64,000 bases of DNA, taken from positions 25,914 to 89,913 of the forward strand of contig JANNXQ010000259.1 in the NCBI GenBank assembly GCA_031409655.1, read 5' to 3'. Origin of the DNA: Chthoniobacteraceae bacterium. Its GTDB lineage: Bacteria; Verrucomicrobiota; Verrucomicrobiia; Chthoniobacterales; Chthoniobacteraceae. Positions within the stretch are counted from its first letter, which is position 1, and each line of letters starts with the position of its first letter. The position numbers and the translations under genes are program-made. The notes beneath the pieces were generated by a model. The model did no database searches and had not been told where the DNA came from. It saw only the letters and a program-made list of their open reading frames with translations. Positions 33,457-44,896 of the stretch are shown here, in pieces.

Positions 33457-34797
<1,341 letters not shown>

Positions 34798-34866: not shown

Positions 34867-35283
34867 TCAAGCCTCCGCGGAGAAGGCGCCGATGAGGCGC
34901 TCCACGGTCGTCTCAAATTCGCGGTCGTCGCTCATATCGAGCATCAGGCGGGACTTAAGGCGCAGGGAGGGGACGGTGCCATCGCGCAAGATCACGAGCA
35001 GGCGCACGGCGCGTTCTTCGACGCCGCGATGATCCGCCAGGATGTTTTCGAGGTCCGTAAATCCGCTCTCACTGTAAGCCTTCGTATAGACCGCGATGGT
35101 GAAGCGCGACTCGAGCACCCCGCGCTCCATTTCGTCGAGCAAAGCGGCGCCGAGCCGGAAGTCGCGATAATCGACGCAGAGCCGAAGGCCGGCGGCTTCG
35201 AGCCGTGGGACCAGCGTCTTGCGGACCCACTCCTGGTCGGAATGGCGGTAGCTGAGGAAGGCGTCGTAGGGACCTTTGGACAT
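34867..35283 (-). CDS. Standalone TIR domain protein (TLR-like, putative catalytic Glu retained)
   Basis: YDAFLSYRHSDQEWVRKTLVPRLEAAGLRLCVDYRDFRLG...MERGVLESRFTIAVYTKAYSESGFTDLE: TIR box1, BB loop and alphaC Glu. Confidence 0.9.
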   Translation of the reverse strand: MSKGPYDAFLSYRHSDQEWVRKTLVPRLEAAGLRLCVDYRDFRLGAALLDEMERGVLESRFTIAVYTKAYSESGFTDLENILADHRGVEERAVRLLVILRDGTVPSLRLKSRLMLDMSDDREFETTVERLIGAFSAEA

Positions 35284-35292
35284 GGGTTTGGG

Positions 35293-38200
35293 TCAGGGGT
35301 TGGCGACCGAGATGTTTGGGCGGTCGATCAGGGTGGTGGCTTCCTTGAGGAGGATGCCGAATTCGAGTTCGTTCCAGAGCCGGCGTGGGGCGCCGACCTC
35401 GCGGCTCTGGCCTTGCTGGATCTGATCGTAGGTGTCGAGGGCTTTGCGCAGCCACCGCTGCGCCTCAGTGGCGTGCTCCGCGCGCTCGCCGTCGCTGAGA
35501 CGCTTCTCACGGCTGAGCTGATGATGGGTCAGGGCGAGGAAGATCTGATCCTGCTGGCGGCCGTCCTCGAGCGCCATCAGGGCGGAGGCGGCGGACTCGT
35601 CGGTCACCTGAGCGAGCGCTTCGCGCACTTGCACCTCGGCCCAGGTTTTGCGGGAGCGATCGAGGGTCTCCCGCGCTTTGGCAAAATCCCCGACGCGGAG
35701 ATACACGGCGCCGAGGGTGTTGAGGCGAAAGTAATTTGGGTCGGCCTCCGCGGTCTTCTCGATGGTGGGCAGGAGTTCGCGGAGCCGGGCGACGTCCGCG
35801 CGGGGATCGAGCACGAATGGCCAGGCAAGGCGCAGGGCAAACTTGCCCGCCCCGTGAAACTTCGCCCACATGTCCTCGAGGGCCTTGAAGTAGGGGGCTG
35901 GATCGTCGGGGTGGAGCTTGAGTTGCAAGCCGGCACGGCGCTGCCACGGGCCGGGGTCGTCCAGCGCCAGCTCCGCCGCTTGGTTGACGGCCTGGAGGCA
36001 GTCTGCCCAGTGCCTCGTCTCGTCCGTGGCCCGGCCTCGGCGGGAGCAATCCAGAGCCTGGTCGAGATGGATGGTGGCGAGCTGCGTCCACGGTTCGTGG
36101 TCCAGAGGATCCTGCGCCGCCATCAGCGCGCAGTCCTTGATCGCGTCCTCCCAGCGGTGCAGTTCGGTGCGCATCCGGGCCCGCAGGGCGATGGTCGGAG
36201 CCCACAACTTTTCCCCGGGCTGGACGCCGAGCAGCGTCCAATTGAAATAGTGTTCCGCCTCGGCCCAGCGTTCGCTCGACTGGAAGGCGTCGCCGCAGCG
36301 CCGGAGCTGGGCAGGCAGGGGGTCGTCTCCGGAGGCGCGAATGGTCGCCTCGAGGTGCCAGGCGGCGGCGAACCAGCGCCCACTGTCTTCGCAGAAAGCC
36401 GCTTCTCGCTGGTGAAATTTCCCGGGCGGGAGCCGGGGAACTTGCGCGAGATAGTCCGTCTTCAGCCGCTGCCACTGCGGCGGCGATTTTTGCAAATCCG
36501 CGGGCCCGAGCGCAGCGCCGGTGATCGTCGCCGCGGTGACGAGTTCGGCCCGGCCGCGGAGATCGCCCGTCGGCAGGTGGTCAGGCGCGATATTCCAGAG
36601 ACGCGCCTCGTCCAGGCGGAGCTGCGGCGCCCTGGAGACGGCGCCGCTGGCCCGAGTCGTGGAGTAGTGCGGGCGGATGCTGGCGAAGCTCAAGGTCAGG
36701 ACCCGCTTTCCCGCGGCATCAAAGGCGGCGCTCCGCACTTCGGTCTGGTGAGGGAGGATGGCGATGAGTTCGCCGGTGCGGGCGTCCCACACGCGCGCGC
36801 GGCGATCGGCGCAGCCGGTGATCACGCGGGAGCCATCGGCGCTAAACGCGGCATCGAGGACGACGCCGCCGTGCGGCAGGCGCGTGGTGGCAGCGGCCTT
36901 TTCACCGGACCATCGCGCGAGATCGTAAAGGACGGCCGAGCTGTCGTAGCTGGCGGTCAGGAGCGTCTGCCCATCGGGGCTGAAGCGCGCGACGGTGAGG
37001 TCGGCACTGTGGATCTTTTCGATCCGCAGGAGCTCGCGATAGGGCGTCGCACTCAGGTCCCAGATCGCCGCCGCGTCGTCGATGCCCGCGGTGGCGAGGC
37101 GCTGCATCGGCGGGTCAAAGGACGCGAAAGTCACGGCCTCGCGATGCGGGAGTTCGCCGCGGAGGGCACCGGTCGCGGCGTCGAAAATCCGGGCGGCGCC
37201 CGTGCGGACGATGCTGTCGCCGCTGCCAGTCACGGCCAGCGTGCCATCGGGACTGAAGGCGATGAAGGTGACGGCGTGAGCGTGCTCGAGAGGCGTGATC
37301 TTTCCGGTAGCCGGCTCCCAGAGCGTGACCATGCGCGACTGTCCGTCCGCAGCGCGGCTGACGACGAGCAGGCGCCGGCCATCGGGCGGGGCAAAGGCGA
37401 GCGCGGTGATTTCGCCGCCGGGCGTCAAGGGGGTGCCGATCCCCTCCGCGCTGCCCACCTTCCAGACGCGCACCTCGGCCGTCGCGGAGGGACCGCCGCC
37501 CGCGGCGATGCGCTGCCCGTCCGCGCTGTAGGCCACGCACGGCACCGGGCCGGGCATCGTCAGGCGCGGCGCGATCGGCTCCCCGCTGGGCGAGACCAGT
37601 TCCACGATGCTCGTTCCTTTGGCATCGCCTCCGGACGCGGTCAGGATGCGTTCGCCGTCCGGGCTGAAAGTGGCCGCGCTCACGGGGCGCTCGAATTCCG
37701 GCGGCGGCGGCATGGCGGTCATCAAGTCCCAGACGCGCACCACATCTCCGCCCGAGGCCACCACCCGGCGGCCATCTTCGGCAAAGGCGGCGGAGACCAC
37801 GCTGCCTTCGTGCCGCAGCGGCGGGAGGAGCAGCCGTCCGGTGGCGAGATCCCAGACGCGCGCTGCCTTGTCGCGGCTGCCGGTGAGCAGATGGCGCCCA
37901 TCCGGGCTGAAGCGCGCCTGAAAGACCCAGCCCTCATGCGAGAGGGTGAGGAGGGTGCGGCCATTGCGGATATTCCAGACGCGGGCGGTGCCATCGTTGC
38001 TCGCGGTGGCCACGCGCAGGCCATCCGGGCTGAAGGCGGCCATGGCCACGCGCGCGGTGTGCCGCAGGGGTGGAGTGGCAGGCTCGCCCGTCTCCGCATC
38101 CCAGACCCGCGCCTCGCCGACTGAGGCCTCTCCCGCGAGGCCGCTCGCGGTCACGAGCGATCTCCCGTCGGGGCTGAATTCCACCCAATTGACGGTCGTC

Positions 38201-40785
38201 TCGTGGGCGATGCGCAGGCGCGTGGAGGATTCGTCGCGGGGTGCGGAAAAGGTCCAGATCAGGGCCGCGCCGGGCTCCGGCTTGCGCGCGTCCCCGAGTG
38301 CGATGGCCAGGCGATCGCCCTCGGGATTGAAGGCGATCCGATTGACGCGAGTCGGGACTGGCTGCGCCCAGATTTCCCCGGTGGCGCGATCCCAGACGGC
38401 CACTTCTCCCGCCGCGCCGTCGGGCGCCTCCACCCAGTAGGCGATCCGATCACGGCTCGGACTGAAGATGACCATGCGCACTGCGCCGAGGGTCTCCACG
38501 CGACCAGCGTCGGTGCCCGCTGCCGACTCCCAGACCTGGACCGCGCCGTCCTTGCCCCCGCTCTGCCCAAAGCCGACCGCGACGATCCAGCCATCGGGGC
38601 GAAAGGCGACCGCATTTGCTGGCCGTGGCGGGGTGGAAACGAGCGGGTGCGGATTTCCCTGCGGATCCCAGAGGTGCGCGACGCCGGATTCCTCGCCAAA
38701 GGTGGAGGTGACCGTGACGATGCGGGTGTCCGGGAGGGCGGAGTCTTTGCGGAGCGTGGGCTCCACGGTGACTTCGGCCGCGGCGAGGCGCGCTTGGGTC
38801 ACGAAGTGCGCGAGGCGCGGGGTTTGCCGGAGCGCGATGGAAAGCCGCTGGCGGTGGGCTGCGCGCCGGGTCTCGTCCTGCGGCAGGGTTGCGACGCCGT
38901 GCGCTTTCATTTCCGTGACCGCGCTCTCCGCCTCCCGCAGGCTCTCGGCAAACCAGAGCGCGGCCAGGGAGAGGTCGCCTTTGGCGATGGCCTGGGTGCC
39001 TTCCTTCACCGTCGTCCGCGCGAGCAGGAAAGACTTTTCACCTCCCTCCCGGGCGACGGTGAGGGCGTGCTGCCGCGCGACTACGCCGGCCCGCCACATC
39101 AGCCCGCCCCAGCCCGCCAGGAGGAGGATGATGGTCGTGAGCGCCGCTCGCTTGAGCAGGAGGCGCTGCCTTTGGGCGCGCTGGCTGGCGGCAAGGAAGT
39201 CGTGCTCCACGGGATTGAGCTGCGGGTAGGTGAAAGCCTCCGCCAGCATGCTGCCGCGCCAGAAGAGCGAGCCCTCACCGCTCTCCCGCCATTGCTCGGA
39301 GGCGTTGCGCAACATCAGCCGTCCGCGCATCTGCACGCGCTTCTCGTCCAGCCACTCCACGATGCGCGGCCAGTGCCGCACGAGGGCGGGATGGCTCACC
39401 GTGACCCGGCGCGGCTCGCTCTGCCCGGGCTCGATCACGCGGAGCAGCCCCGCCTCGCAAAACTCCGCGACGATCTCGTCGAGCCGCTCCTCGGGCGCGG
39501 CCGCCCCGCCCGGAAAATCGAGGGGCACGGGCGTGACCGAAAATCCGCTCCCGAGATGGGGCGTGAGCAGGCGCATGAAAAGACCCTTGATGGCGTCCCG
39601 CGCGATGCCGGGCTGGCGGTACACGCGCTCCGCTGCCCGCTGGAGCGCCACCCAGCCGCCACCGAGCTGCCGGTAGATCTCAAAGCTGATCCGATTGCGC
39701 AGCCGGCCGCCGCGTTCATCCCACATCCGGCGCAGGCTGAACTGGAGCAGCGCGAGGGCAGCGGGATCGCCCTGCACATCGCGGAGCAGCCGCTCGATGA
39801 CCCCTTCCTCAAAGATCAGCCCGACGCGCTGCGCCGGCTCCTCGACGATCTCGCGCAGTTCATTGGCGTCGAAGGTGACATTGAGCTGGGCGTCGTTGAG
39901 CCAGCGGGTGAATTCGTCGCGCCCGGCGAGGCGCGTGAGGGTGTCCGCATCGCCCACGACGATCGCCGTCTGCCCCAGATCCACCCAGGCCGCGAGCGCG
40001 CGCAGAAAGGCGGTGACGTCCGGCCCGGCGGCGAAGGCGAAAATTTCCTCGAACTGATCCACCCCGATCACCGCATCGCGGCTCGCGGGCGCCGTCTCCT
40101 GGATGAAACGCGCCGGCTCCGCCCGCAGGCGGGCGACGCGGGCCGCCAGCTCCCGCGGATCGTCCGTGGGGGCGAGGATGCCCACGAGATTTTCCAGCGG
40201 ACTCCCCCCTGCCGCCAGCACCCCGAGACAGCGCAGGGGCGCGGCCGTGGCGTCGTCCGCGACCGGGCCGCGGCGGGCGAGCCGTGGCCAGAGTCCCTGC
40301 TGGAGCAGAAAGGAGCGGCCACTCCCTGGGGCGCCGATGATCACGAGCAGGCGATTGGCGCGCAGGATGGTCAGGGCGTCCGTCATCAGCCGGGACCACG
40401 CGCGCCGCTGTGCTGGGGAGGCGTCGTCCAGGGTCTGCGGCGAGGCAAAGGGAAACTCCGCAGTCCGGAGATCCGCGCCGGCTTCGGGGTCATAGGGGGC
40501 GAGTTCGCCGCGCGGGAGACGATCCGCGGGCACGTCGTAGCGGTAGAGTGAATTTGACCAGTAGCTGAGCAGGCTCTGCGCGGAGGACCGGTCCGAGTCC
40601 GAGTACAGCCGTGCGCCCATGGCCGCGACTCCGTGCAGGAACTCGATGACCTCGCCGCACAAGGCCTCCCGGTTGCCGCCTTCGCCCTGGAAGCGCTCGA
40701 CGAGCCGGTCATGCTCGGCATTGATTTCGTCGATGGTCGTCAAGGGCGCCTTCGGCGGAGGCTGGATGGGGTTCGTTTCAGGCAT
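35293..40785 (-). CDS. NLR-like protein: unassigned helical N-domain + nSTAND-type NTPase (degenerate Walker A) + TM helix + WD40 repeats + TPRs
   Basis: LLVIIGAPGSGRS, VIGVDQFEEIF, ELREIVEEPA..VGL.FE.G, LALLQFSL..MW, Y..LGG, HPALVRHWP; hydrophobic ALTTIILLLAGWGGLMW; about 16 WD-like repeats (H...V..A.FSPDG...TAS.D..ARVWD); C-terminal TPR-like helices (NTLGAVYLRVGDF..A). Confidence 0.9.
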   Translation of the reverse strand: MPETNPIQPPPKAPLTTIDEINAEHDRLVERFQGEGGNREALCGEVIEFLHGVAAMGARLYSDSDRSSAQSLLSYWSNSLYRYDVPADRLPRGELAPYDPEAGADLRTAEFPFASPQTLDDASPAQRRAWSRLMTDALTILRANRLLVIIGAPGSGRSFLLQQGLWPRLARRGPVADDATAAPLRCLGVLAAGGSPLENLVGILAPTDDPRELAARVARLRAEPARFIQETAPASRDAVIGVDQFEEIFAFAAGPDVTAFLRALAAWVDLGQTAIVVGDADTLTRLAGRDEFTRWLNDAQLNVTFDANELREIVEEPAQRVGLIFEEGVIERLLRDVQGDPAALALLQFSLRRMWDERGGRLRNRISFEIYRQLGGGWVALQRAAERVYRQPGIARDAIKGLFMRLLTPHLGSGFSVTPVPLDFPGGAAAPEERLDEIVAEFCEAGLLRVIEPGQSEPRRVTVSHPALVRHWPRIVEWLDEKRVQMRGRLMLRNASEQWRESGEGSLFWRGSMLAEAFTYPQLNPVEHDFLAASQRAQRQRLLLKRAALTTIILLLAGWGGLMWRAGVVARQHALTVAREGGEKSFLLARTTVKEGTQAIAKGDLSLAALWFAESLREAESAVTEMKAHGVATLPQDETRRAAHRQRLSIALRQTPRLAHFVTQARLAAAEVTVEPTLRKDSALPDTRIVTVTSTFGEESGVAHLWDPQGNPHPLVSTPPRPANAVAFRPDGWIVAVGFGQSGGKDGAVQVWESAAGTDAGRVETLGAVRMVIFSPSRDRIAYWVEAPDGAAGEVAVWDRATGEIWAQPVPTRVNRIAFNPEGDRLAIALGDARKPEPGAALIWTFSAPRDESSTRLRIAHETTVNWVEFSPDGRSLVTASGLAGEASVGEARVWDAETGEPATPPLRHTARVAMAAFSPDGLRVATASNDGTARVWNIRNGRTLLTLSHEGWVFQARFSPDGRHLLTGSRDKAARVWDLATGRLLLPPLRHEGSVVSAAFAEDGRRVVASGGDVVRVWDLMTAMPPPPEFERPVSAATFSPDGERILTASGGDAKGTSIVELVSPSGEPIAPRLTMPGPVPCVAYSADGQRIAAGGGPSATAEVRVWKVGSAEGIGTPLTPGGEITALAFAPPDGRRLLVVSRAADGQSRMVTLWEPATGKITPLEHAHAVTFIAFSPDGTLAVTGSGDSIVRTGAARIFDAATGALRGELPHREAVTFASFDPPMQRLATAGIDDAAAIWDLSATPYRELLRIEKIHSADLTVARFSPDGQTLLTASYDSSAVLYDLARWSGEKAAATTRLPHGGVVLDAAFSADGSRVITGCADRRARVWDARTGELIAILPHQTEVRSAAFDAAGKRVLTLSFASIRPHYSTTRASGAVSRAPQLRLDEARLWNIAPDHLPTGDLRGRAELVTAATITGAALGPADLQKSPPQWQRLKTDYLAQVPRLPPGKFHQREAAFCEDSGRWFAAAWHLEATIRASGDDPLPAQLRRCGDAFQSSERWAEAEHYFNWTLLGVQPGEKLWAPTIALRARMRTELHRWEDAIKDCALMAAQDPLDHEPWTQLATIHLDQALDCSRRGRATDETRHWADCLQAVNQAAELALDDPGPWQRRAGLQLKLHPDDPAPYFKALEDMWAKFHGAGKFALRLAWPFVLDPRADVARLRELLPTIEKTAEADPNYFRLNTLGAVYLRVGDFAKARETLDRSRKTWAEVQVREALAQVTDESAASALMALEDGRQQDQIFLALTHHQLSREKRLSDGERAEHATEAQRWLRKALDTYDQIQQGQSREVGAPRRLWNELEFGILLKEATTLIDRPNISVANP

Positions 40786-42298
40786 GGCTGATCACGTCGA
40801 GCCGCTGGTCGGCCGTCTGCCGCAGTTTGCTGATTTCGCCGCAAAGGGTCTTCAGGTCCGCATCCGTCCGGCTGAAACCTTCGCTCACCGCGGGGCGCAG
40901 CTTGCGAAATTCGCAGCGGATCGCGCGGGCCACGGCGGGATCGCTGGCGGCCTTGGCGAATCCGCCAAGCGCGACTTCGAGGCCGGCCATTTTTTCGGGG
41001 AGCTTGAATTCGTCGATCCAGCGCGATGGCTTCAGACGGCGGAGCGGCTCGGCGATGCCCCGCCAGACCTGCCGCACGCGCAGGATGTCGGGCGATTCGC
41101 TGTGATCGAGCACATGCATCTGGTCATCGCTGATCTGGAGGGCGTCGTGGTTGGAGATCAGCCGGTTGACGCTTTCTTCGATGAGCTCGAGGGCCTTTAC
41201 CCCCGCGGCAAAATCCTCGATGCGTTGGCGGGCTTCGTCGTCGAACTCACTGGCCCGGAGATCGGCCAGGATCTCCCCCTGCCGCTTGATCAGATCGGGC
41301 AGCGGGAGCTGGCGCGCCTTTTCCTTGAGGCTCCCATTGAGCCGCGTCGGCTCGCTATGGAGCACCGCGGCGATGCCCTCGATCCCGGCCTTCAGGAGTT
41401 CCACGTCCTGGGCACAGACTCCGTCCGTCACGTCCGCCTCCGCGGCCAGGAGGATCGCGATCCACGGGGGCGGGTCGCCCGGCGGCGCAAACTCCGCCGC
41501 CCGCGATTGCACCGTCGTCAGCCGCGCCTCCAGATTGGTGAAAGCCGCCCCGACCTTTTCCCAGGAGCGGTCCAGAGCCTCCGCTTCCAGGGTGCTTTGC
41601 GCGCGCTTCTCGAGGAGGTCGAGCTTGCGGTCGATGACGACGTTGAAGGCATCCTGCGCGGAGTGAAAATCGTCGTGCAGGAGCTTGTCGTGGGTGAGCA
41701 GCTCGATCTGTTCGCAGGCGCGTTCGAAGACGCTCAGGAATTGCTCGACCCGCGCCTGGACTGCCGCCGTGCCGAGAAACTGCCGCAGAGTCGCGACGCC
41801 GAGGCGCGCGGATTCGGCGCTCTTCTGGTTCAGGGTTTTCCGGTCGCCGCAGAGCTGCGCGAGCAGGGTATTCATCATCCCGGTGCGCTGCGTCAGGTCG
41901 GAAAGGTCCACTCCATTGAGGCGCGCGATGAGCAGCCTGGGCTGCACGCCCGGGCCGCCGAGGTTCTCTTTTGGCTCAAAAAAAAGCGGGATGAACCGCG
42001 CCTCCCGCGCCGCGGGATCGAGGTGCATGGTCAGGTTGTCGAGGAGCTGGCAAAGCGGGTCCGCGAGATAACTCGAGGTGATGACGGCCAGGGTGCGACG
42101 GGACTGGGTCACGGCGTTTTCCAGATTGTCGAGGATGGTGGCGCCATAGCGGCCATCGCTGCGGGTCACGGCCTTCAGGCCCGCGGTGCGTAGCGGCAGC
42201 AGCACCTGCTCCTCCGCGAGCTCCTTGTCGCCGTCGCAGCAGGCCACGAAGACATCGTAAGACACCGGCTCAGGGGCGGCGTCTGGTGGAGTATTCAT
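40778..42298 (-). CDS. TIR domain (divergent, probably non-catalytic) fused to an uncharacterised alpha-helical domain
   Basis: YDVFVAC...D......L...GL...GATILDNLENAVTQSRRTLAVITSSYLADPLCQLL...RFIPL, then about 340 aa helical region with KLLHDDFH; stop overlaps the start of the STAND gene by 8 nt. Confidence 0.8.
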   Translation of the reverse strand: MNTPPDAAPEPVSYDVFVACCDGDKELAEEQVLLPLRTAGLKAVTRSDGRYGATILDNLENAVTQSRRTLAVITSSYLADPLCQLLDNLTMHLDPAAREARFIPLFFEPKENLGGPGVQPRLLIARLNGVDLSDLTQRTGMMNTLLAQLCGDRKTLNQKSAESARLGVATLRQFLGTAAVQARVEQFLSVFERACEQIELLTHDKLLHDDFHSAQDAFNVVIDRKLDLLEKRAQSTLEAEALDRSWEKVGAAFTNLEARLTTVQSRAAEFAPPGDPPPWIAILLAAEADVTDGVCAQDVELLKAGIEGIAAVLHSEPTRLNGSLKEKARQLPLPDLIKRQGEILADLRASEFDDEARQRIEDFAAGVKALELIEESVNRLISNHDALQISDDQMHVLDHSESPDILRVRQVWRGIAEPLRRLKPSRWIDEFKLPEKMAGLEVALGGFAKAASDPAVARAIRCEFRKLRPAVSEGFSRTDADLKTLCGEISKLRQTADQRLDVISHA

Positions 42299-42513: not shown

Positions 42514-43248
42514 ATGGCCCTGCCCTCGCTGCTCTCCACCAAGCCCATCGACCCGCGCGACCGGCTCATTTTCGCCCTCGATGTGCCGACGAAGACGGAG
42601 GCACTGGCGTGGATCGACCGCCTCGGCGACGCGGTCACTTTCTACAAGCTGGGCCTCGAATTTTGCATGAGCGGCGAGTACTTCGCGGTGCTCGATGCGC
42701 TGGTCGCGCAAGGGAAGCGGGTCTTTGCCGACCTGAAGTTTGCCGATGTTCCGGCGACGGTCGGTGGGGCGGTGGCGAATCTCGCGGGACGCGGGGCGAC
42801 GCTTTGCACGCTGAATGCGACCACGGCCGCCTACGCCGCGGCGGTACCGGTGAAGGGCGCGATGCAATTGCTGGCGGTGACGGTGCTCACGAGCATGGAC
42901 GCCACGGATCTCGCGGAGCTCGGCTGGTCCGGCCCAGTGGAGGAACTCGTCTCCCGCCGCGCCCGCGCCGCGGTGGCGGCCGGGATGGACGGGCTCATTT
43001 GCTCCGGTCTCGAAGCGGCGCGGCTGCGCCGCGAAGTGGGCGCGGGACCGATCCTCGTGACCCCCGGCATCCGCGTGGCAAGCGACCGGGGGAGCGATGA
43101 TCAGAAACGCACCATGACTCTCGAGGAGGCCTTCCGGGCGGGAGCGGATCACATCGTCGTCGGGCGTCCGATTCGGAAGGCGGCTGATCCACGCGCTGCC
43201 GCGGAAGCGATGCAGGCGGAGATCGCGGCGCTCTTTGCCGCGCGCTGA
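42514..43248 (+). CDS. pyrF: Orotidine-5'-phosphate decarboxylase
   Basis: LIFALDV, YKLGLE, FADLKFADVPATV, AVTVLTS, VTPGIR, DDQKR, IVVGRPI. Confidence 0.96.
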   Translation: MALPSLLSTKPIDPRDRLIFALDVPTKTEALAWIDRLGDAVTFYKLGLEFCMSGEYFAVLDALVAQGKRVFADLKFADVPATVGGAVANLAGRGATLCTLNATTAAYAAAVPVKGAMQLLAVTVLTSMDATDLAELGWSGPVEELVSRRARAAVAAGMDGLICSGLEAARLRREVGAGPILVTPGIRVASDRGSDDQKRTMTLEEAFRAGADHIVVGRPIRKAADPRAAAEAMQAEIAALFAAR

Positions 43249-44821: not shown

Positions 44822-44896
44822 GCCAGTGTAGCTCAGGGGTAGAGCAGCTGTTTCGTAAACAGCAGGTCATGGGTTCGAATCCCATCACTGGCTCCA
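44822..44896 (+). tRNA. tRNA-Thr (anticodon CGT)
   Basis: Acceptor GCCAGTG/CACTGGC + T-CCA, D arm GCTCAGGGGTAGAGC, anticodon stem GCTGT/ACAGC with loop TTCGTAA, T loop GGTTCGAATCC. Confidence 0.96.

Follow-up and report, generated by a model that had tools for sequence, protein, structure and literature searches.

A three-gene island between purA and pyrF

The window analysed here, a stretch of 64,000 nucleotides from a Chthoniobacteraceae bacterium (contig JANNXQ010000259.1, positions 25,914 to 89,913), contains three head-to-tail minus-strand genes at 34867-42298, bounded by purA and pyrF, which we read as a conflict (immunity or cell-death) system. Our concern is with two domains encoded there: a ~330-residue all-helical body, called X below, that follows the TIR domain of the first gene product, and a small helical module, called N below, with which the second gene product begins. 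Bacterial STAND/NLR immune systems are under rapid mapping, and we know of separately encoded effectors being attached to STAND sensors solely through homotypic pairs of Death-like domains or effector-associated domains (EADs). A first-pass annotation, made from the DNA letters, had proposed that X and N are a cognate interaction pair coupling an NLR-like sensor to a TIR; the comparisons described below support the reading of X and N as a cognate pair that couples such a sensor to an effector. The three genes are the following.

40778..42298, minus strand: gene 1, 506 residues, TIR head and X domain (open reading frame, ORF, and translation)
35293..40785, minus strand: gene 2, 1830 residues, with N module, nSTAND1 NTPase, hydrophobic segment, WD40 propellers and TPR-like tail
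34867..35283, minus strand: gene 3, 138-residue stand-alone TIR (ORF, Pfam TIR_2 and whole-genome TIR_2 search)

The ATG of gene 2 runs into the stop codon of gene 1 within an 8-nt overlap, ATGCCTGA, and 9 nt lie between the gene 2 stop and the gene 3 start. The parts of the first two proteins to which we refer are, from N- to C-terminus:

41894..42253, minus strand: TIR_2 head of gene 1, residues 16-135 (Pfam PF13676, E 1.2e-10, 42.3 bits against a 28-bit cut-off)
40790..41857, minus strand: X domain, ~330-residue all-helical body (family hidden Markov model, HMM, match in its own genome, E 1.4e-89)
41663..41686, minus strand: motif 1 of X, KLLHDDFH, residues 205-212 (K205, H208, D209, H212); family consensus YKxLHDxLH
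41135..41149, minus strand: motif 2 of X, HDALQ, residues 384-388 (H384, Q388); family consensus HDxWQ
40402..40785, minus strand: N module of gene 2 (family HMM match, E 1.1e-28)
40540-40734, minus strand: three-helix core of N, residues 18-82 (AlphaFold2)
39274..40392, minus strand: nSTAND1 NTPase, residues 132-504 (Pfam PF20703, E 7.3e-58)
39076..39147, minus strand: hydrophobic uncharged segment, residues 547-570 (top Kyte-Doolittle 19-mer, 1.68)
35296..38685, minus strand: C-terminal repeats, WD40 propellers (~residues 700-1400) and then a TPR-like tail (boundaries approximate)

X occupies residues ~150-506 of the 506 in the gene 1 protein; the region singled out by the first-pass annotation, 40778-41840, corresponds to residues ~154-506. 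The ~340-residue helical domain with an HDxxH motif that it had described there, behind the TIR, is borne out by an AlphaFold2 model of residues 140-506 (one all-helical domain of long helices; predicted local distance difference test score, pLDDT, 93.7; predicted template-modelling score 0.86), for which an alignment of 136 relatives served as input, and by a full HMMER pass over 1.84 billion representative proteins, which returned 456 X matches at E<=1e-3, 140 of them at E<=1e-10. K205, H208, H384 and Q388 are the sole invariant columns among the 136 aligned relatives, the D209 column of motif 1 is at least 90% conserved in them, and the pattern K-x-[LVIMW]-H-[DE] is present in 143 of 151 stored proteins, a set that includes the window's own TIR protein. 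An internal duplication, hinted at in the first-pass annotation by a weaker later echo of the motif region, emerges clearly when the first half of the family alignment is compared with the second by hhalign (probability 84.6%, E 6.8e-6, 124 columns), the alignment laying motif 1 on motif 2; by this profile comparison X is a tandem duplication of a ~160-residue helical unit, and its second copy carries motif 2 as the counterpart of motif 1.

The N-terminal part of gene 2, residues 1-131, matches no Pfam family at E<=10. AlphaFold2 predicts helices at residues 18-34, 39-59 and 63-82, then an extended stretch (pLDDT 85.5), so that the next gene does open with a helical module, of three predicted helices and directly before nSTAND1, as the annotation had it; G57, R66 and W76 are invariant in a 59-sequence alignment of N. 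The nSTAND1 domain behind it scores 197.4 bits against a 27.1-bit cut-off over profile positions 21-376 of 379, and is the sole match over the cut-off in the window's genome. Further on, WD40 (E 1.5e-57) and propeller families of Pfam are matched, with a weak TPR_12 match in the tail (E 6e-5), and this repeat region is presumed to be the sensor. A candidate origin of N as a copy of part of X, suggested by pairwise BLASTP (E 4e-4), was overruled by profile comparison: with an hhalign probability of 0.3%, X and N are, at the level of their profiles, non-homologous.

Neither domain was placed by the libraries and structure collections searched. The gene 1 protein has no Pfam, NCBIfam or PADLOC match beyond TIR_2, the NCBIfam scan adding no family to the TIR_2 found by Pfam; X scanned alone against Pfam at E<=10 meets solely EAD5 (E 0.11, 12.8 bits, under the 27-bit cut-off), and no Pfam family falls on X itself in any of its best 149 relatives. 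N, like X, meets no NCBIfam model. PADLOC-DB v2 gave 0 families for the gene 1 and gene 2 proteins at E<=0.1. Foldseek against the PDB returned nothing for X at E<=1e-3 (best TolC, E 0.025, TM 0.24) and no row for N at E<=0.001 (best E 1.4); PDB sequence searches with the X and N profiles gave nothing below E 0.006, the top rows being designed proteins or TatB, and a search of the ESM Atlas gave no usable match.

The X-N pair across genomes

We collected further X loci by running a degenerate DNA pattern for YKxLHDx[LF][HQ]x[LIVM][QE] over species-representative genomes, which yielded at least 120 stretches, 80 of them with 10-kb flanks; X was confirmed by the family HMM in at least 90 loci, and those listed belong to cyanobacteria, Chloroflexota, Acidobacteriota, Planctomycetota, Myxococcota, Verrucomicrobiota, Gemmatimonadota and Alphaproteobacteria. 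An iterated search with the window's N found N in at least 58 ORFs of the fetched loci. Among the matches listed, the next same-strand gene starts with N in 56 of the 59 X loci that have at least 400 nt downstream, and in one of the exceptions (L069) N also comes after X, in an overlapping frame; as a control, N was found in 0 of 18 flanked loci that match the pattern by chance. Where the two genes overlap, they do so by 4 nt in 20 of the loci listed and by 8 nt in four, the latter being the overlap in the window. Whole-genome counts agree: six genomes, the window's own and five others, contain exactly one X and one full N, adjoining each other, one of the six having in addition two nSTAND1-like frames whose match is confined to the end of the N profile, where the NTPase begins. 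The genomic co-occurrence that the first-pass annotation had proposed as a check is thus present in the loci listed, absent from the controls, and found as adjacency in six whole genomes. It had also named two outcomes that would speak against the pair, membership of known families of unrelated function and independent occurrence; X and N fall in no library searched, and the co-occurrence holds.

The sequences of the two domains also diverge together. The distance matrices of X and N correlate with r=0.79 over 56 pairs, a value reached in 0 of 2000 permutations, those of X and the NTPase likewise with r=0.79, and those of N and the NTPase, which are parts of the same chain, with r=0.84; controlling for the NTPase leaves a partial r of 0.39 between X and N. 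X and N therefore co-diverge as tightly as two domains of one polypeptide.

What stands behind N varies. In most of the N-bearing ORFs listed the body is nSTAND1 with repeats, and nine of the partner proteins listed have no STAND NTPase: in four (L013, L031, L038 and L053) the body is Endonuclease_NS, and in five (L003, L020, L034, L052 and L058) it has no Pfam match. Two partners (L004 and L021) have nSTAND1 reduced to its last third, profile positions ~255-359, and the partner in L081 carries EAD10 and nSTAND5. N follows X rather than the NTPase. The four endonuclease proteins, from Mesorhizobium and Hyphomicrobiales, each consist of N, a hydrophobic segment and Endonuclease_NS:

L013:10894-13572
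L031:6456-9149
L038:6507-9203
L053:10857-13340

A word-index search for N among longer proteins is dominated by such Mesorhizobium N-NucA proteins. In public records the N-Endonuclease_NS proteins are named just "DNA/RNA non-specific endonuclease". We also note L012:10896-14291, in which two GAF domains stand ahead of N and nSTAND1, the only N listed that is not at the very N-terminus of its protein.

The part ahead of X is at least as variable, as the first-pass annotation had suggested should be checked. The X match reaches the C-terminus in all of the best 150 of the 456 rows, with 0 to ~570 residues ahead of it, and Pfam scans of the best 149 of the 456 relatives (97 at E<=1e-3, 52 at E<=1e-4) gave the following heads.

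TIR_2 alone: 58 of 149
CHAT: 18 of 149, one also with TIR_2
EAD7: 8 of 149
EAD1: 5 of 149
EAD10: 2 of 149
EAD2: 1 of 149
DUF4062: 3 of 149 (P0101, P0110, P0118)
Protein kinase: 1 of 149
Abhydrolase_6 (alpha/beta hydrolase): 1 of 149
SEFIR with TIR_2: 1 of 149
ParA-like AAA_31 with TIR_2: 1 of 149
No Pfam match: 50 of 149

The EADs together make up 16 of the 149, and many of the 50 proteins with no head match are fragments or have just 50-100 unassigned residues there. In 55 X genome loci, among the matches listed, the heads are CHAT (17), TIR_2 (7), SEFIR/TIR (1), EADs (18 in total: EAD1 9, EAD7 4, EAD10 4, EAD5 1), alpha/beta hydrolase (1), Metallophos (1) and none (10). Mapped on a FastTree phylogeny of 56 X domains, the head label requires 18 changes, the minimum possible being 7 and the mean after shuffling 34. 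Because heads before X and bodies behind N vary, we take the X-N pair as the constant part: so far as their sequences and arrangement tell, X and N are conserved neighbours, matched one to one, that are transcribed together and diverge together while the heads and bodies around them are swapped. They make up a widespread module spanning at least eight phylum-level groups, at least 11 kinds of head and several kinds of partner body.

Some observations on single X proteins may be added. The occurrence of DUF4062 as an X head places this family among the effector or adaptor heads of X systems. Many headless X proteins (alignment A3, e.g. P0064, P0053, P0074 and P0131) start with short Gly/Asp-rich repeats of the type G-G-D-V-V-G-R-D-K, which could be a small beta-rich or amyloid-like signalling motif. 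P0005, a protein of 432 residues from an ENA contig, continues past X with sequence resembling the start of N, IAELNAVHDELVPRF, probably through a frameshift or read-through of the gene call into the next gene.

A putative docking pair, its topology and its rivals

Our consideration of what X and N do together begins with the chain in which N resides. Residues 547-570 of the gene 2 protein are likely a single membrane span, judging by their composition. Of 59 N-bearing proteins, 51 have one uncharged hydrophobic segment of 19-27 residues in the corresponding place, behind N or the NTPase, and six of the eight proteins that have none are cut by contig ends or have split frames. Lys and Arg residues average 4.7 in the 15 residues before the segment and 2.7 in the 15 after it, 41 proteins having more before the segment, 7 more after it and 3 the same number on both sides. 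Because the NTPase needs cytoplasmic nucleotide, and because of this bias towards Lys and Arg before the segment, the C-terminal part would lie outside the cytoplasm; the pattern suggests that N proteins are single-pass, with their C-terminal repeats, or nuclease, on the outer side. If the span is real, what such STAND sensors survey may be the periplasm or the envelope, and not the cytoplasm.

The second consideration is the state of the two TIRs of the window. Gene 3 was found just downstream of gene 2 by a whole-genome TIR_2 search (E 4.2e-20, 72.9 bits). In an alignment of 56 TIR-X heads with gene 3, the Glu after the S-x-x-W/F motif of TIR_2, which we take to be the catalytic residue, is present in 30 of the 56 heads, and 10 more have Glu one position later. 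At this column the gene 1 head has Leu followed by Asp, as does the nearest relative, 79% identical to the gene 1 protein and the only one that a word-index search with X returned; a 44% identical relative has Met, then also Asp; gene 3 keeps the Glu. The annotation's coupling of the sensor to a TIR accordingly needs to be restated: the TIR is indeed fused to X, but it is one of many heads, and the one fused to X in the window has no Glu at this position.

We consider it fairly probable, from these sequence patterns, that X and N dock heterotypically and that their pair is the core of a so far undescribed EAD/STAND branch of conflict systems, in which sensor-triggered oligomerisation activates the heads borne by X. 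N would be the socket and X the plug. If N docks X, the X protein therefore would act as a heterotypic adaptor, hanging an effector, or an EAD that recruits one, on the cytoplasmic N-terminus of a single-pass membrane protein. In systems built on nSTAND1, the C-terminal WD40/TPR part, probably outside the cytoplasm, would bind a trigger; NTP-dependent oligomerisation would then crowd the X-borne heads, which might be activated by proximity. In the window, the Glu-less TIR head perhaps serves as a TIR-TIR adaptor that recruits or nucleates the gene 3 TIR, and the latter, being intact, would be the likely NAD+-consuming executioner. The full picture of transmembrane NLR-like receptors, with a WD40/TPR sensor outside, nSTAND1 oligomerising inside, an N-X plug firing swappable enzymes and a dead TIR as adaptor, we offer tentatively. 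Were it true, bacteria would possess a receptor-type STAND pathway that signals from outside to inside and whose outputs can be swapped, and the dead TIR of the window would serve a separate active TIR in much the way of the adaptor TIRs of animal Toll signalling.

Several points weigh against this proposal and need attention. With regard to topology, the hydrophobic segment in the window is weaker than those of its relatives (Kyte-Doolittle 1.68). With regard to the TIRs, loss of activity in the X-fused domain is read from one alignment column, whose Glu is taken to be the catalytic one, and an extra TIR gene was seen in 0 of 7 other TIR-X loci (within their flanks), a set outside which the closest relatives of the window lie; when metagenomes were scanned for close relatives, neither the window's protein nor P0007 yielded any. 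With regard to the pairing, the locus pattern covers about half of the X family, the window's own subtype falling outside its coverage, and two loci break the rule: in L047 an EAD7-X gene is followed by a sugar dehydratase and no N gene, and in L078 X lies within a 704-residue frame with no N. No natural X-N fusion was noticed in the 80 flanked loci, where no search was aimed at fusions. Co-inheritance of an operon alone could yield the synteny and the correlated distances with no contact between X and N, and X does correlate with the NTPase as well as with N (r=0.79 each). Lastly, X is large, and its invariant polar residues K, H, D, H and Q, at spacings of i, i+3 and i+4 on long helices, are what one would sooner expect at a catalytic site, or at one binding a ligand or metal, than in a passive adaptor.

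This last point leads to the alternative that we regard as unlikely yet the best of the three, namely that X is mainly a sensory or regulatory module, a double four-helix bundle whose ligand would be a metal, a small molecule or a protein of an invader, and which would gate the head or signal to the STAND protein. Such a role would be compatible with docking on N, and K205, H208, D209, H384 and Q388 share one face of the long helices. A VIA-align structural search with X aligns residues 56-193 alone, to four-helix bundles, and the best neighbours of this part include ligand-binding bundles of chemoreceptors (McpS, 2yfa, Z 12.9 over 111 residues; PcaY, 6s18, Z 12.2; Tsr and Tar, ~Z 10), while one X relative has a weak CHASE3 match (E 4.4e-5, under the cut-off). 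However, designed bundles score higher still (Z 14.4), this range being generic for helical bundles according to the search tool, Foldseek gives nothing at E<=1e-3, and the chemoreceptor sensor families 4HB_MCP and HBM have no Pfam match in the window's protein at E<=10. Moreover, the partner already has a large repeat region typical of STAND sensors, and a sensory X leaves unexplained why N, rather than another part, accompanies it.

It seems rather improbable to us that X is itself the effector, a membrane-active or toxic bundle, with the EAD-X proteins being ordinary EAD-effector fusions and N an unrelated regulatory piece. The EAD-X layout, found in 16 of the 149 proteins and 18 of the 55 loci listed, is indeed that of the EAD-effector protein in the scheme of PMC7159879, as given in its accessible parts, and the weak top Foldseek rows for X are TolC-type channels and the AhlB pre-pore (E 0.025-0.18, TM 0.17-0.27). 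These fold matches are, however, far below significance, X has no hydrophobic segment at the threshold used, and the TIR-X, CHAT-X and kinase-X proteins would each hold two effectors. In addition, a matching EAD sits on the partner STAND protein in L081 alone, the other matching EADs being on neighbouring effector genes; because the partners have no matching EAD except in L081, the EAD on X cannot be what ties X to its STAND partner.

That X and N merely share an operon, X contacting the NTPase, the juxtamembrane helix or the heads and N, for example, autoinhibiting the NTPase or targeting the membrane, would account for X distances correlating equally with the NTPase and N, but we think it no less improbable, since X accompanies N also where the STAND NTPase is missing (at least nine systems) or reduced to its last third (two), X and N still correlate positively once the NTPase is controlled for (partial r 0.39), and other nSTAND1 paralogues in the same genome have neither N nor a neighbouring X.

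Relation to described conflict systems and surroundings of the island

The coupling logic of the heterotypic docking proposed here is close to that of EAD-coupled, NTPase-centred conflict systems. In these, according to the accessible parts of PMC7159879 and PMC8195603, a constant core carries variable heads (TIR, caspase/CHAT, kinase, trypsin), EAD1, EAD2, EAD5, EAD7 and EAD10 bring in further effectors, and a central nSTAND1 has repeat sensors; the taxa with X-N, namely cyanobacteria, Chloroflexota, Myxococcota, Planctomycetota and rhizobia, are also those rich in such systems. The same parts of the two papers describe the coupling as homotypic, with the same small EAD or Death-like domain on both partners. 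Unlike these, the X-N partners carry unrelated domains, a ~330-residue body on one side and a three-helix module on the other (hhalign probability 0.3%), and the Pfam models of EAD1-EAD11, VMAP, EACC and bDLD gave no match over the cut-off for X or N.

Death-fold modules of apoptosomes and inflammasomes (CARD-CARD, PYD-PYD) are six-helix bundles that pair with their own kind. X-N would resemble Death-fold adaptors in that a STAND protein recruits a separate effector through a small helical module at its N-terminus, with oligomerisation activating by proximity; it differs in that N has three predicted helices and X is a different and much larger fold. N itself, compared with the Death-like superfamily (Death, CARD, bDLD), has three predicted helices rather than a six-helix bundle, and no Pfam match at E<=10. 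The analogy to death-like or effector-associated adaptors drawn by the first-pass annotation is therefore apt for the coupling logic; it fails for the nature of the pair, which is heterotypic, Death-fold and EAD pairs being homotypic.

Avs and bNACHT proteins are, as far as is known, soluble, with the effector fused. The accessible parts of bioRxiv 10.64898/2026.01.04.697583 describe in Avs/bNACHT the same order of a STAND NTPase, a C-terminal repeat sensor and an N-terminal effector position; in X-N systems, unlike these, the effector is on a separate protein, putatively attached through X and N, and a predicted span lies between the NTPase and the sensor.

A further likeness is to VMAP, the third component of vWA-MoxR ternary systems: in the accessible parts of PMC7159879 it has a constant helical body, tied to NTPase machinery, with an effector or EAD as its N-terminal head. 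X, in contrast, has no VMAP-C or VMAP-M match at E<=10, it is partnered with N, on a membrane STAND protein, instead of with a vWA-MoxR pair, and the window flanks hold purA and pyrF with no vWA or MoxR gene. Identification of X as VMAP, EACC1 or FxsC-C was rejected, there being no Pfam or NCBIfam match; published descriptions, in the parts accessible, make EACC1 a single-transmembrane alpha+beta domain and FxsC-C an inactive TIR. Separately, at L002:10952-18521, by an EAD10-X / N-nSTAND1 pair, there are LexA_DNA_bind+TIR_2, vWA (CoxE-like), MoxR-like AAA_5 and NACHT-HEAT genes; this locus is a cluster of several conflict systems.

Neighbouring genes tie some members to systems already described, for where the head of X is an EAD, nearby genes carry that EAD joined to an effector. 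In the EAD1-X loci L021 and L055 an EAD1+Trypsin_2 gene is directly upstream, EAD10 proteins are near X in L002, L012 and L025, and L020 and L034 have Trypsin_2 and Trypsin_2+Endonuclease_NS genes, an arrangement which is that of the alphaproteobacterial NucA-peptidase "System 3" of PMC7159879. The Mesorhizobium and Hyphomicrobiales members of X-N likewise lie amid Trypsin_2, Trypsin_2+Endonuclease_NS and EAD1. The "System 3" section of that paper cites "other EAD1-containing proteins", and has no X-like body or N module. Unlike in that account, N here heads a protein of N, hydrophobic segment and NucA, with the X gene just upstream, so that the X-N family would link the alphaproteobacterial NucA-peptidase operons to nSTAND1 systems.

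In the accessible STAND/EAD conflict-system literature, supplementary domain tables aside, we did not find the X-N pair described, and neither X nor N is named in the accessible parts of PMC8195603, the 2026 ParA preprint, the 2026 Avs preprint or the DGR preprint. As far as these comparisons reach, we rate X-N as belonging to the known class of NTPase-centred conflict systems, in which it would be an adaptor pair, widespread and as yet unnamed, that forms a two-gene core. What is new would be the heterotypic pair, its breadth, the bridge to NucA-peptidase operons and the membrane topology; the existence of such systems will not surprise specialists. Naming X and N would let annotation place hundreds of "hypothetical" TIR, CHAT and EAD proteins in one system, and the pair is perhaps also a compact candidate for docking that could be reused for coupling effectors to sensors.

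Finally, we turn to the surroundings of the three genes. The window's own genome has a single X, and 400 other genomes of its phylum have none. In 2-kb bins, G+C is 0.70 over 36-40 kb and 0.675 over 40-42 kb, the adjoining bins having 0.65 and 0.66 and those farther out ~0.63-0.66; by its G+C and the absence of X from those 400 genomes, 34867-42298 looks like an acquired island. Two plus-strand ORFs, 35029-38124 (1031 residues) and 38203-40551 (782 residues), run antisense to gene 2. Because the opposite strand is gene 2, with its strong family matches, they are taken to be products of the 70% G+C and no genes. Around the island lie:

33457-34728: purA, island flank
42514-43248, plus strand: pyrF, island flank
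44822-44896: tRNA-Thr, near the island

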